Below are positions 19,219-43,978 of a stretch of 50,219 bases of DNA, piece after piece (within the stretch, counting starts at the first letter, position 1; each line of letters starts with the position of its first letter). The translations under genes and the position numbers were made by a program. The stretch comes from Shigella phage phi2457T: the sequence record MH917278; one strand, written 5' to 3'. The notes beneath the pieces are model-generated. The model saw only the letters and a program-made list of their open reading frames with translations. It did no database searches and was not told the origin of the DNA.

Positions 19219-19887
19219 ATGCACTTACCAAATGGCGCGCAAATTTTCGTGGAAACCTCTCGCGGAGAAGAGATCGAGGCGACCGCTGTCACTAACGCAA
19301 AAAATCCTGTTGCTACAGTTGCATCTAAGGGCGACTTGGCGAAAGGTGATTACGTTATTGTAACTCAGTCAACTTGGGCTAAGATGGTTAGTCGAGTACT
19401 AATTGTTACTGACGCCCAAGAAACAAGCATTACTCTTGCTGGGATTGACACTACTGATGCTCTTGTTTTCCCGGCTGGCGGTACAATGAGCTTTGCAAAA
19501 ATTACTGGCTGGACTGAGATCCCTTGCGTACAGGAGATTGGTCAGGACGGCGGCGAGCAGCAGTATTACACTTATCAGTGTTTGTCTGACGATAAAGAGC
19601 AGCAGATCCCGACGTTTAAGTCTGCAATCTCGCTAACGTACACCTTCGCGCACGAATTTGATAACCCTATCTATCCTATTCTGCGTAAGCTGGATTCTTC
19701 TGGTCAGGTAACTGCGGTTCGGATGTATGTTCCAAAAGCGAACGAGATGCGCATGTGGGCTGGTATCTTGTCTTTTAACGACATTCCATCTACGCAAGTA
19801 AACGAAATGGAAACGGTACAACTCGCCGTATCCCTGAAGGGTGATTTCACTTTCGTTTCATCCGCTCTGGCATCACCTGGTGCCTAA
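19219..19887 (+). CDS. major tail protein
   Basis: 222 aa directly upstream of the G/G-T chaperone pair and tape measure; followed by hairpin. Confidence 0.6.
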   Translation: MHLPNGAQIFVETSRGEEIEATAVTNAKNPVATVASKGDLAKGDYVIVTQSTWAKMVSRVLIVTDAQETSITLAGIDTTDALVFPAGGTMSFAKITGWTEIPCVQEIGQDGGEQQYYTYQCLSDDKEQQIPTFKSAISLTYTFAHEFDNPIYPILRKLDSSGQVTAVRMYVPKANEMRMWAGILSFNDIPSTQVNEMETVQLAVSLKGDFTFVSSALASPGA

Positions 19888-19898
19888 ATCATATCCAC

Positions 19899-19922
19899 AG
19901 GGGGCTTGCGCCCCCTTATTCA
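19899..19922 (+). terminator. terminator-like hairpin
   Basis: agggggcttgcgccccct followed by a weak T-rich tract. Confidence 0.4.
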
Positions 19923-19980: not shown

Positions 19981-20000
19981 AACCAATCAGGAGAAATATC

Positions 20001-20318
20001 ATGGCTAAATTTAATTTCGTTCTTGGTCAACTTCCAGACTTCAAACTTCCAGTCACCTTCACCATGCCTAACGGTGAAGATGCAACGATCATTTTCACTG
20101 TACGCCACCTTTCCAGTAAAGAAGTTCAGGATATGTATGCCAACCAGGGAGAAATGAACGACAGCGAGTTCATTACCAAGATCGCGTCAGGATGGAACCT
20201 TGAAGAAGAATTTAACGAAGAAAATGCGCGAAAACTGGTTCAGTATTATCCTTCAGCAGCGTACAACCTGACAGCAACTTACATCAAGGCTCTCGCCGGA
20301 CACCGCGCAAAAAACTAA
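20001..20318 (+). CDS. tail assembly chaperone (lambda gpG-like)
   Basis: 105 aa ORF between major tail and tape measure; ends with slippery A_AAA_AAC two codons before the stop. Confidence 0.7.
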   Translation: MAKFNFVLGQLPDFKLPVTFTMPNGEDATIIFTVRHLSSKEVQDMYANQGEMNDSEFITKIASGWNLEEEFNEENARKLVQYYPSAAYNLTATYIKALAGHRAKN

Positions 20319-20635
20319 AAAGGGCGGTCTATCTGTTATATCAGAAGCCGCCAACAGAGGAACAATTGCGATCGGTTGGTTTAAGTCTTTCAGACTATGA
20401 AGACGAGGAACCTGAAACGATAATTGGCGACGCTGAAATGGTGAAGGCTTGGAATGTTTTTACATCAATGCTCACTCAGTGGAGAAGTTCAGGCGCTGGC
20501 GCTTATGGTCTTGACTATAATGTTTTGCCTATGTTGTTTAAAATCTATAAAATAGAAGATGAAGAACTGGCATTGCAGGACGTTAGGATCATGGAAGCGA
20601 AAGCGCTTGAAATGATTGCTAAGCAGAATAACTAA
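20001..20635 (+). CDS. tail assembly chaperone G-T fusion via -1 programmed ribosomal frameshift (predicted)
   Basis: Heptamer A AAA AAC at 20309-20315 in frame 0; the -1 frame is open from 20309 through ORF 20366..20635 with no intervening stop. Confidence 0.6.
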
Positions 20636-20658
20636 GCCGCCGTCTGGCGGTTTTTTTG
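20636..20658 (+). terminator. rho-independent terminator
   Basis: Hairpin ccgcc/ggcgg followed by TTTTTTT. Confidence 0.55.
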
Positions 20659-20674
20659 TATATAAGGGGGTTAT

Positions 20675-23548
20675 ATGGTTGATAAGGTAGCAGGTCTATC
20701 GCTTGACGTTGATGTTTCGACAGTGCAGCGCGCCGTCAAGTCATTGAAAGAGTTTTCAAAAGCTAACGACCAAGCCGCTGACTCTATGGGGTCTTTAATC
20801 AATGAGGCCGAGGTTGCAAAACAGAAGGCTAAAGAGCACGCTGAGCAACTTAAGCGCCAGCGCAAAGAGTACGAGGCTGTAGAAAAGGCAATCGATCCTA
20901 CAGTATCAAAAATGGAAAGGCTGAAGATTGCATCTCAGCAGCTTGATAAACTCTGGCAAAAGGGCGTTGTTCCAGATGAAACATTTTTCCGTTTGGGTGA
21001 AATGCTGGACATGCAAAATGCAAAACTTGCTCGCAGCCGAGCCATGCTTACTGAAGAGGGGCAGGCAGCATTGCAGGAAGCGAAAGCAAAAGAGCAGGCA
21101 GCAGCGAAAAACAAAGCGTTCATGGATTCCCTGAACAGTCAGGTTAACGCTATTGGCAAAACTCACGCAGAGTTAATGGAACTGAAAGCGGCTCAGCTTG
21201 GACTATCAAATGAAGCAGCGCCACTGATCGCAAAACTGAAAGAGCAGGGTCGAGCCATGAATGCCGCAGGTATTAGCGCGGGGCAATATAGGCAGGCAAT
21301 GCGAATGCTTCCTGCACAGATTACCGACGTCGTTACATCTCTTGCGTCCGGTATGCCAGTTTGGATGGTTGCCATCCAGCAAGGTGGTCAAATCAAGGAC
21401 TCGTTCGGCGGGATCGGGAATACGTTTAAGGTATTGCTCAGCTATATTAATCCGGTCACAGTTGGTGTTGGTGTTCTTGTCGGCTCTTTAGGTCTTCTTG
21501 CGAAAGCTGGTTATGACTCTTACAAGTCAATAACTGATATGCAGAAGGCTCTTGTTGAGACTGGAGGTTATGCAGGAGTCACGGCTGAAGAACTTGATTC
21601 TGTTGCTAAAAAGGTGTCTCAGACGAGCAATTCAACAATTTCAAGCATTCGTGAGATTGTTACTGAACTTGCCAGTACGGGGAAGTATACGCGAGAGCAG
21701 ATTCAGAACATCACAAAGGCTACCGCTGAGTGGTCGACAGCAACCGGTAAATCAGCAAGTAAAATCATCGCTGAGTTCGATAAAATCGCAAGCGATCCTG
21801 TAAAGGGTCTGGCTAAACTTAACGAGCAATACAACTTTTTAGAAAAAGGGCAACTGACATATATCGATACGCTAAGCCGTACTAAGGGTGAAACAGAGGC
21901 AGTGTCTGAAGCCACGAAATTATTCGCCGATGTAATGGAAAAACGAATGAAGTCGATCGCTGATAATGCTACCCCTCTGGAAAAAATGTGGAACGATATT
22001 AAGCAGTGGGCCTCTGATGCGTGGGGGTGGGTTGGGGATCATACTCTCGGAGCATTAAACCTGATTATTGACGTAGTTCAGGGTACGGTAATTCAGGTAA
22101 AAATGATTCTGGCGAAGGGTGATGAGTACATCTCAAACTTTATAGCCTCTGCAATTAAGGCTACGCAGTCTCTGCCTGGAATGAGTGATTTCGGCGCTGA
22201 TGTACTAAAGGAACAGGAGAATATTGTAAAAAGTTCTCGTGACAACTACGATCAGTTAGCTTCAGAGCTTGATGCCATCAACGCCCGTGTTGAAAAAGGT
22301 GAGATGGGATACATTGAAGCAATGAAGCAGCGCCGTACTCTTGAAAAGCAGTATAGCCAGGAAACTAAGGACGCCATCAAGGAAGAAGCTAAAGAGATCG
22401 AAAAGCGAAACCGTGAACGAAATAAGCAGTCGAAAATTTTACGCTCACCTACAGAGCAATTCGATAAGGAGTTAATTTCACTCAAAGCGCAGCTTAAGGT
22501 TTTGCAGGAGCACAAGGAGATCGGGCAAAAAATATCAGCACAGAGAAAGGCGCTTTTTACGACTGAGGCTACAATTGCTGTTCTTCGAGAAGCTAGTTCT
22601 AAGCGTCAGCTATCTGCGGAAGAAAAAGCACTACTTGCAAACCAAGAGAAGGTTTTAGAGCTTGCGAAACAAAAGGCTGAGATTGGCGATCAGATTGTTA
22701 AGCAGCAGCAGTTGAACGCACTTACCGATAAATCACTGAAATTTGTCAATGATTTGACGGCAGCTACAGAGCAGCTAAACGCGTCTCGCGGGATGAGCAC
22801 TCGAGAAATGGAACGACAAGCGGAACTGGCTAAGATCACCACTGACTATATTAATGCAGGTGGCAGCGAAGGAGATGAAAAACTCCAGAACATGATCAAG
22901 GCACAAAATGATTACTATGCTGCGGAAGATGCCAAGCGCGCTGACTGGTTAGCTGGTGCTGAAAGCGCATTTGCAGATTACGGCGATTCTGCAATGGATA
23001 TGTACGGCAACGTGTATGATATCGCGTCAAGTTCACTTAACGGAATGAGTGATATGATGACCCAATTCCTTACTACAGGTAAGGCAAATTTTGAGGACTT
23101 TGCGAAAAATATCATTAGCATGATTATCAAGATGATTGCTCAGATGGTAATCTTCAATACGATCTCAGGCATGACGGGAGGTAAGACATGGAGTTTTGCA
23201 AGTGGATTGACCTCTAGCGCTTCTGCGGCATCACAGGCAACTCCTACGCCTGCCGTCTCTGGTTTTAGGTCTTTATCTTCAGGCGTTGCCGTTACCTCGC
23301 TTGCTGCCGCTGCGGGTAGTGTTGCAACCTCTGGATTTAACGCATCTAAATCCGCACCGAAGGCAGCGAACCAGTCAGCAGGCGGGACGGTCGTTGATGT
23401 TAGGGGTATGGAGGTTAAAGTTGACAACGGTTCAGATCCGAGAGGAATTTCTCAGGGCGTAGAAATGATGTTCAAAAAAATGATTCGAGAGTCTTGTTCG
23501 CAGGGCGGTGAGGTTTACAATTACATTCAGGAAAAAACAGGAGGCTAA
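20675..23548 (+). CDS. tail tape measure protein
   Basis: 957 aa, Ala/Lys/Glu/Gln-rich coiled-coil sequence with hydrophobic segments near 21400 and 23100; position after G/G-T. Confidence 0.9.
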
Positions 23549-43089: not shown

Positions 43090-43577
43090 TGGGATTAAAA
43101 AATAACGTTATAGGCGCATCGATCGGGGCTGCTTTGACTTTGACACCTACACTACTGGAACGAATCGAAGGGATAGAATACGAAGTGTATTACGATATAG
43201 CCGGAGTCCCTACAGTATGCAGCGGAATAACCGGGCCGGACGTCATACCTGGCAAGAAATACACTAAGCGAGAATGCGATGCATTACTGATAAAACATAT
43301 CGGCGTCGCTCAGCGATACGTTGACAAGAAGGTTAAGGTTGAAATTCCGGTAACGATGCGCGCCTCACTCTACAGCTTTACTTTCAACGTTGGTACTGGC
43401 GCATTCGGATCTTCTACAATGCTTAAGCTAATCAATCAGAGTAAGCACAAGGAGGCGTGCAATCAGTTATGGCGATGGGTATACTACTACAATCCAAAAA
43501 CAAAAAAGCGCGAAGTGTCTAGAGGACTCAAGAACCGACGCGCTGAAGAATACGCGTATTGCGTTAAGGAATTATGA
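43089..43577 (+). CDS. endolysin, lysozyme (T4/P1 lysozyme-like) with SAR-like N-terminus
   Basis: Catalytic region [23 protein letters not shown] matches the E-D-T signature of phage lysozymes; N-terminal [17 protein letters not shown] is weakly hydrophobic and Gly/Ala-rich. Confidence 0.8.
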
Positions 43578-43978
43578 TGAAACTGAAGAAAACGTGCATT
43601 GCGATTGCAGTGGCTGTTGGTGTTATTTCTCTATCCGGTTGCTCGACGGCATCTGCTCTGAGCGGTTTACTTTCTGACTCCCCGGATGTTACTGCGCAGG
43701 TTGGCGCTGAGAACACTAAGCAACTGGCGGGAGTTACTGCAAAGGCCGACGATAAGCGAGAAGTGAAGGTGAGTGATTCAAATATTGGCAAGATTGACTC
43801 ATCCGTCAAGAAGTCTGTGGAAGTGTCAACCATTCAGGCTAACACGGTTAACGCTGAAAGCATCACGGTAACAAAACCGGGGAACTGGTACGATGCAATT
43901 GTAGGGTGGACTCTCGTTTTTATTGGCCTGTTGATGATTTATTTTTCACTTCGTAAGAACGGAAAAAAGGAGGCTTAG
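43574..43978 (+). CDS. unimolecular spanin (u-spanin, T1 gp11-like)
   Basis: N-terminal lipoprotein signal with lipobox LSGC plus C-terminal [16 protein letters not shown] in the same polypeptide; last gene of lysis cassette. Confidence 0.7.

Follow-up and report, generated by a model that had tools for sequence, protein, structure and literature searches.

Shigella phage phi2457T very likely extends its tail assembly chaperone by programmed -1 ribosomal frameshifting of the kind known from lambda G/GT, and the shift would take place at a slippery heptamer, A_AAA_AAC, that makes up the final two codons of a chaperone gene situated between those for the tail tube and the tape measure protein. 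The site was read in the window, by which we mean the whole stretch of DNA analyzed (50,219 nucleotides, sequence record MH917278), and was compared with homologous loci, in which both a change of reading frame at the heptamer and selection on its nucleotides are evident. By sequence identity, the phage is a T1-like coliphage of Drexlerviridae, Tunavirinae, genus Tunavirus, a placement taken from the classification of its annotated relatives. Over 861 bases around the locus, it is 99.9% identical to Escherichia phage AV106 and 91 to 99.5% identical to the other T1-like phages of E. coli and Shigella among the matches listed, with 2 of the 64 matching records at 80 to 90%.

The chaperone gene ends with the zero-frame codons gca (20307), aaa (20310), aac (20313), and taa (20316), as the sequence-only reading had claimed. 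These codons set the heptamer in X_XXY_YYZ register, with the stop codon immediately behind it. Open from 20216, the -1 frame runs to a stop at 20633-20635 and passes through the open reading frame (ORF) 20366..20635, which was also expected and which lies in that frame (20366 mod 3 = 2, with the chaperone start at 20001 mod 3 = 0). Joining the 105 residues encoded in the zero frame (G) to the 106 of the -1-frame segment (T) would give a fusion of 211 residues, close to the earlier estimate of about 210; its coding sequence is join(20001..20315,20315..20635), with base 20315 read twice. The GC-rich segment aagggcggtc, noted earlier behind the slippery site, lies at 20320-20329 and contributes the 5' arm of a hairpin. 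The features of the locus are collected in the table below.

Features at and around the chaperone frameshift site of phi2457T (positions in the window)
Feature	Position	Strand	Basis or remark
Major tail (tube) protein gene	19219..19887	+	Pfam Phage_tail_3, E 8.6e-70; upstream synteny marker
Terminator-like hairpin in the gap between tail tube and chaperone genes	19899..19916	+	Scan: 7-bp stem with 6 GC pairs, T-rich tail
Shine-Dalgarno-like AGGAG, 7 nt 5' of the chaperone ATG	19989..19993	+	Direct reading
Tail assembly chaperone gene, G-like, 105 aa, zero frame	20001..20318	+	Phage_TAC_4; phrog_569; phrog_17368
Slippery heptamer A_AAA_AAC, proposed -1 shift site	20309..20315	+	In register; invariance; zero synonymous variation
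T-like segment, -1 frame, 106 codons plus stop	20315..20635	+	Open frame; DUF1799; phrog_17368; coding signature from first codon
TAA stop of the zero frame, abutting the heptamer	20316..20318	+	Direct reading
Hairpin, candidate frameshift stimulator	20323..20352	+	Folding, shuffles, synonymous sites of the stem
TTG taken by ORF finders as start of an 89-aa ORF	20366..20368	+	Judged a non-functional start
Terminator-like hairpin in the gap between T segment and tape measure gene	20634..20653	+	Scan: 8-bp stem plus T run
Tape measure protein gene	20675..23548	+	Pfam TMP_2, E 8.4e-75, and Tape_meas_lam_C, E 7e-25; downstream synteny marker

Proposed earlier to be a tail assembly chaperone, the upstream ORF matches Pfam family Phage_TAC_4 over its full length (E 5.5e-37), and the -1 segment matches DUF1799 (E 2.7e-12, residues 24 to 101 of the segment). 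Moreover, phrog_17368, a profile of fused proteins with 213 positions, is matched end to end, G occupying positions 1 to 107 and T positions 109 to 212. The ORF list and the Pfam matches give the order tail tube, chaperone, DUF1799 segment, and tape measure. Of the two terminator-like hairpins that flank the pair, the upstream one has an annotated counterpart in the T1 RefSeq record and in Stevie, and the downstream one is an annotated terminator in T1 and Stevie. The Pfam families, the synteny, the profile of fused proteins, and the comparative frame switch described below all support the reading of the pair as a lambda-like G-T fusion. Other searches added little: a large protein database searched with the predicted 211-residue fusion gave just two matches, each a T-like ORF that gene callers had extended upstream, and no annotated fusion; a sequence search of solved structures found nothing meaningful (best E 0.084, proteasome subunits); and an AlphaFold2 model of the chaperone alone, made without an alignment, reached a pLDDT of 53.6.

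As a string of bases, the heptamer is within what chance would supply. It is the sole in-register X_XXY_YYZ heptamer within the chaperone gene, but such heptamers number 36 in about 13,260 codon positions genome-wide (0.27% per codon), so that the chance of one in the 100-nt overlap of the two frames before the stop is about 9%, and AAAAAAC itself occurs 11 times on the + strand of the genome. The case therefore rests on context and conservation.

Homologous loci were drawn from IMG/VR, GenBank phages, and bacterial genomes, and about 105 of them were compared at their terminal codons. Seventy-two loci, comprising 65 phage contigs, the window, and 6 contigs from bacterial genomes, end in NNA AAA AAC and a stop, with the heptamer invariant in 72/72 at protein identities down to about 26%; the preceding codon specifies Ala, Val, Thr, Glu, Ser, or Gln and always ends in A. 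Eleven loci, from prophages of Burkholderiales, Pseudomonas, Neisseria, and others at 23 to 30% identity, end instead in NNG GGA AAC and a stop, and the codon before GGA AAC (Leu, Ser, or Val) ends in G in 11/11. The third base of the preceding codon thus tracks the next two bases, the signature expected if the P-site and A-site tRNAs re-pair together. In all 83 loci ending in A_AAA_AAC or G_GGA_AAC, the stop codon abuts the heptamer, and only L130 and L143 carry the heptamer further upstream of the stop, by one and five codons, respectively. The other endings are GCA AAA GTT TAA in 14 Webervirus loci, GCA AAG GTC TAA in 6 Rogunavirus loci, GCA AAG CCC TAA in one metagenome contig (L128), and CAA AAG TAA in phage Ymer. 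With synonymous variation at zero and the preceding third base kept, conservation of the slippery site exceeds what the protein sequence requires.

The same comparison records where the reading frame changes. Among 31 unique G genes of equal length, synonymous entropy in the zero frame averages 1.3 to 1.4 bits through codon 102 and then drops to exactly 0 for codons 103 to 105; past the heptamer, the variable positions shift to the third positions of the -1 frame. The entropy drop and the change of phase together place a change of reading frame at the heptamer, with no dual coding upstream of it. Although the -1 frame overlaps the end of the chaperone gene by 100 nt in the window, the overlap shrinks to 28 nt in one Tunavirus locus (L014) and to 22 nt in phage Ymer. 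In Dhillonvirus (L045; PaulFeyerabend), the -1 frame opens exactly at the heptamer, for an overlap of 7 nt, and in PaulFeyerabend a -1-frame TGA stands directly before AAAAAAC. We also considered a shift further upstream, at the in-register A_AAA at 20231-20234, and rejected it, as the -1 frame is closed there in relatives (the 28-nt overlap occurs within Tunavirus itself) and synonymous sites are unconstrained.

These terminal codons also bear on how many tRNAs would have to slip. In an alternative account, the -1 shift is real but is made by the single Lys tRNA on A_AAA (20309-20312), with AAC not required, and the junction would read ...RAKK-LKR.... Webervirus and Rogunavirus carry only A_AAA or A_AAG at that codon, with one more sense codon (GTT or GTC) ahead of the stop; in Ymer, A_AAG abuts the stop; and in E. 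coli the A_AAG tetramer is among the most shift-prone, A_AAA being less efficient (Sharma et al., PMC4066793). Because these viruses do without the full heptamer, slippage of a single Lys tRNA is evidently enough in the Webervirus and Rogunavirus clades. However, AAC does not vary in 83 loci, among them those with G_GGA_AAC, in which Gly rather than Lys stands before it, so that the Asn codon is the more widely conserved element; moreover, G always precedes GGA, which points to re-pairing by two tRNAs. We therefore regard slippage on the Lys codon alone as unlikely for phi2457T itself, although it may contribute, and favor a tandem shift on A_AAA_AAC.

Whether T might be a gene of its own can be judged from the stretch between the heptamer and the first possible start. 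No ATG, GTG, or TTG occurs in the -1 frame from 20216 until the TTG at 20366. Translation from this TTG as a separate downstream gene, with no frameshift, would use the Shine-Dalgarno-like AGAGGA at 20356-20361, 5 nt upstream, as its ribosome binding site; the records of AV106, LHE71, and many other phages do give two separate coding sequences, and the Pfam DUF1799 match starts downstream of the TTG. Yet in T1 and near relatives, the TTG is replaced by TTA (L057, L058, and L017-L020) and AGAGGA by AGAAGA, and the T1 record begins gp39 at an ATG 150 nt after the G stop, which yields a stub of 56 residues. The 51 nt from the heptamer to the TTG are, moreover, coding in the -1 frame. We compared them in 84 homologous loci, representing 48 unique sequences, in which stops of the -1 frame are found in 0/48 and a zero-frame stop in 48/48. 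Read in the -1 frame, the 17 codons of 20315-20365 have an entropy of 1.22 bits at the third position, compared with 0.43 and 0.38 bits at positions 1 and 2; a single-base codon difference is synonymous in 86% of cases in this frame, whereas the other two frames give 3% and 14%. By this sequence signature, purifying selection acts on these codons as read in the -1 frame, and LKRAVYL, which begins at the first codon past the heptamer, is among the best conserved stretches of the T segment. Separate translation would also leave the zero synonymous variation and the base tracking at the heptamer unexplained. We thus consider a free-standing T gene very improbable, while the arrangement AGAGGA-N5-TTG at 20356-20368 could allow some independent initiation in phi2457T alongside the frameshift.

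Least probable of all is transcriptional slippage, in which RNA polymerase would add one A in the A6 run at 20309-20314 and yield the junction ...RAKK-LKR...: the run does exist and a one-base insertion gives the same frame as a -1 ribosomal shift, but productive slippage in enterobacteria usually needs runs of about 8 to 9 or more, the genome contains 57 runs of at least six A on its two strands (31 on the + strand and 26 on the - strand), and relatives with the same layout lack a homopolymer run, having G_GGA_AAC (the 11 prophage loci), CAAAGG (Rogunavirus), or CAAAAG (Webervirus). Since the G_GGA_AAC and A_AAG variants do without such a run, they argue against transcriptional slippage as the mechanism of the family, and what is conserved is the capacity for tRNA re-pairing, not the length of a run.

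On the favored reading, ribosomal frameshifting at A_AAA_AAC, most ribosomes would terminate at the TAA at 20316 and release the 105-residue chaperone, whereas a minority would slip back one base on the heptamer. In doing so, the Lys tRNA would re-pair from AAA 20310-20312 to AAA 20309-20311 and the Asn tRNA from AAC 20313-20315 to AAA 20312-20314, after which CTA (20315-20317) would be read and the -1 frame continued to 20635. We infer a 211-residue product with the junction ...AGHRAKN-LKRAVYLLYQKPP..., made in small amounts. By analogy with lambda, the common N-terminal part may coat the tape measure protein, and the T part may bring in the tail tube protein. A site of low efficiency would then keep the short form in large excess over the long one, and the hairpin and the adjoining stop codon probably tune that efficiency. 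The sequence-only reading had called the heptamer canonical; it is a proven site in E. coli, but it is canonical mainly for eukaryotic ribosomes and works at low efficiency in E. coli (PMC5009743, PMC4066793), in which A_AAA_AAC is much less shift-prone than A_AAA_AAG (PMC5009743). Such weakness fits a chaperone pair whose long form must be in the minority, and the shift efficiency here may be a few percent or less.

Structure prediction for the RNA downstream of the site, which had been proposed as a check, gave a hairpin at 20323-20352 that folds much better than shuffled sequences. Its outer stem pairs 20323-20328 with 20347-20352, and its inner stem pairs 20332-20335 with 20342-20345; the spacer of 7 nt from 20315 is within the 5 to 9 nt expected for a signal of the dnaX/IS911 type. 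With 45 to 50 nt downstream of the heptamer folded, the minimum free energy is -15.4 kcal/mol (z -4.0 to -4.4), and 0/200 shuffles are as stable. T1 and Stevie-type phages have an even better hairpin, GGCGGTTT with AAACCGCC. Codon choice in the stem was examined in 32 unique sequences encoding Lys-Pro-Pro at the 3' arm: Arg is AGG or CGG in 30/31 (14% of Arg codons genome-wide), Ala is GCG in 30/32 (23% genome-wide), Leu is CTG in 32/32 (21%), and the first Pro is CCG in 31/32 (35%), whereas the Pro codon that follows, just beyond the stem, occurs with all four third bases. These nearly fixed synonymous sites, which run against codon usage, support selection on the hairpin in the clade that bears it.

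Beyond that clade, the hairpin is not a shared feature. Tunavirus, Tempevirinae, Dhillonvirus, and roughly one half of the distant prophages have it, but no fold better than random was found in Rogunavirus, Braunvirinae, some Tempevirinae-like contigs, L090, L087, and the other distant prophages, about half of them; unrelated strong hairpins occur at similar spacing elsewhere, for example, in L142 (z -3.3) and L146 (z -3.5). RNAalifold run on 55 sequences returned no pairs and no consensus structure, and pair counts across relatives showed few double compensatory changes and a paired share of 78.6% of cells, compared with 76.1% for shuffles. We therefore rejected the hairpin as a conserved feature of the whole family and kept it as a clade-specific one, probably a modulator of efficiency and not a required element. 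No Shine-Dalgarno-like stimulator is evident upstream, as 20290-20308 (ctctcgccggacaccgcgc) contains no GGAG, AGGA, or GGGG-like element, and an Rfam scan of 20150-20750 gave three chance-level matches only, far below gathering scores.

The closest functional parallel is the gpG/gpGT chaperone pair of lambda (Levin, Hendrix and Casjens 1993; Xu, Hendrix and Duda 2004, 2013, 2014, as summarized in PMC5009743). The layout is that of lambda, a pair of overlapping ORFs flanked by the genes for tail tube and tape measure, and a -1 shift late in the first ORF would give a minority long form with a shared N-terminal part; the downstream tail genes are of the same kind, the tape measure protein having the lambda C-terminal domain. 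Unlike lambda, which uses G_GGA_AAG, phi2457T has A_AAA_AAC, the heptamer abuts the stop codon, and a stable hairpin follows in this clade. Phage_TAC_4 and DUF1799 are, moreover, the only Pfam matches of the two phi2457T proteins at E <= 0.01, so that the pair, though it appears to function as lambda G/GT does, falls outside the lambda families at the level of sequence.

Nearer relatives have the same arrangement. In Citrobacter phage Stevie (KM236241), the homologous genes are placed alike, the motif (gtA AAA AAC TAA) is identical, and the hairpin is of the same type; the announcement of that phage (PMC4319613) mentions a chaperone frameshift, and one is annotated likewise in E. coli phage U136B (PMC8104045). 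The records of Stevie and of Klebsiella phage Sweeny (NC_049839) contain joined coding sequences labeled as frameshift products, although Sweeny, a Webervirus, differs from phi2457T in having GCA AAA GTT TAA and thus only an A_AAA motif. The frameshift is therefore of a kind already known, with annotated homologous sites in related genera; our literature search found no paper naming the slippery sequence in T1-like phages.

The heptamer is shared with systems of other function. In IS1, A_AAA_AAC is a proven low-efficiency -1 site in E. coli for InsA/InsAB' (Sekine and Ohtsubo 1989; Escoubas et al. 1991, as covered in PMC4066793), and there too only a small amount of fusion is wanted, but the product is a transposase and not a virion assembly factor, and IS1 is not known to have an established stimulator (PMC4066793), whereas phi2457T has a hairpin and an adjoining stop. 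E. coli dnaX (tau/gamma) also combines a -1 shift on an A-rich heptamer with a short spacer and a stem-loop; unlike phi2457T, it uses the far more efficient A_AAA_AAG and an upstream Shine-Dalgarno-like stimulator, and its shorter product makes up about 50% (PMC5009743). The g-t sites of the haloarchaeal tailed viruses HCTV-1, -2, and -5, whose hosts are archaea, include the same pair of AAC-ending heptamers as the phi2457T family (Sencilo et al. 2013, as reported in PMC5009743).

The practical consequence is for annotation. Phages AV106 and LHE71, the Sfin phages, and the T1 reference record carry two separate small ORFs with the fusion unannotated; the 56-residue gp39 of T1 is one result, and RefSeq labels the ORFs "tape measure protein". 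The join given above, or equivalent coordinates in T1 and close relatives, would correct these records. Biologically, the gain is modest: T1-type phages very likely use a conserved tail chaperone frameshift, whose position is now fixed to seven bases. The tabulation of terminal codons is, in addition, a natural experiment on the constraints on a slippery heptamer, in which AAC is kept where AAG would shift better, and it raises for specialists the question of why a weak site beside a stop is preferred.

X_XXA_AAC (A_AAA_AAC or G_GGA_AAC) set against a stop codon spans a very deep divergence, being found in T1-like phages of E. coli and as far away as prophages of Burkholderiales, Pseudomonas, Neisseria, and Gilliamella. 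In the A site, AAC is the codon that viral frameshift sites of eukaryotes typically have, and it shifts poorly in E. coli, which suggests that the adjoining stop may belong to the signal. We tentatively propose, while thinking it somewhat unlikely, that the recoding signal of the Phage_TAC_4/DUF1799 family is this fixed unit, and that the stop may belong inseparably to a bacterial signal of a distinct type; alternatively, the position of the stop is a mere by-product of where G ends. If the proposal is true, the stop could make the ribosome pause while the slippery pair occupies the E and P sites, or could tune an intentionally weak site.

Homologues of the chaperone pair extend to prophage-like regions of bacterial genomes, among them those of Gilliamella, Neisseria, Pseudomonas, Ramlibacter, Paraburkholderia and Comamonas (contigs L128-L148). 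In most of these homologues, the place of the proposed -1 frameshift heptamer A_AAA_AAC is taken by G_GGA_AAC, followed by TGA. Two matches in this set, one in a Fibrobacter MAG and one in a Nitratidesulfovibrio assembly, are 47-53% identical in sequence to the protein of the coliphage, so they may represent phage contigs present as contamination. Two IMG/VR contigs, L073 and L119 (the same locus as L039), have a TGA that ends the chaperone ORF early and a short -1 frame of 24 and 18 codons, respectively, with the motif gcaaaaaactaa retained farther downstream in L119. These arrangements probably reflect sequencing indels rather than biology.

Within the 100-nt overlap of phi2457T, we found a second in-register A_AAA tetramer (cgA AAA ctg, 20231-20234). 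We rejected it as a conserved shift site, since relatives have -1 frame stops between the position of this tetramer and the heptamer. Farther downstream, AGAGGA-N5-TTG at 20356-20368 has the appearance of a ribosome binding site and start codon, which leads gene finders to predict a separate ORF of 89 aa for the T segment; this arrangement is not conserved, its counterpart in T1 being AGAAGA and TTA.

Public records of the relatives contain several annotation faults. In RefSeq, the label "tail length tape measure protein" covers not only the tape measure gene but also the chaperone and the T ORF, and PHROG families 569, 680, and 17368 are likewise labeled "tape measure." The tail tube protein is named "tail fiber" in the T1-like relatives AV106 and LHE71, and the T1 annotation reduces gp39 to a stub of 56 aa.

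Hairpins bounding the chaperone cassette and records with annotation problems
Feature	Location	Context
Terminator-like hairpin with T tail	19899-19916	3' of tail tube gene, 5' of chaperone cassette
Terminator-like hairpin with T tail	20634-20653	3' of chaperone cassette, 5' of tape measure gene
Records with annotation problems	L001 and L002 (819-1487); L127 (873-1507); RefSeq entries matching the locus	

Elsewhere in the genome, A_AAA_AAG, which is the heptamer most prone to shifting in E. coli, lies in register at 43963-43969 within ORF 43574..43978 (134 aa), three codons 5' of the stop; the hairpin aggaggcttagcctcct is found on its 3' side. With its lipoprotein signal (LSGCS) and a hydrophobic segment at the C-terminal end, the product of this ORF resembles a unimolecular spanin. 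A -1 shift here would add only a short tail.

The hairpins on both sides of the chaperone cassette are annotated as rho-independent terminators in the records of T1 and Citrobacter phage Stevie. Partial read-through could produce a stepwise drop in expression from the tube protein to the chaperones and then to the tape measure protein.
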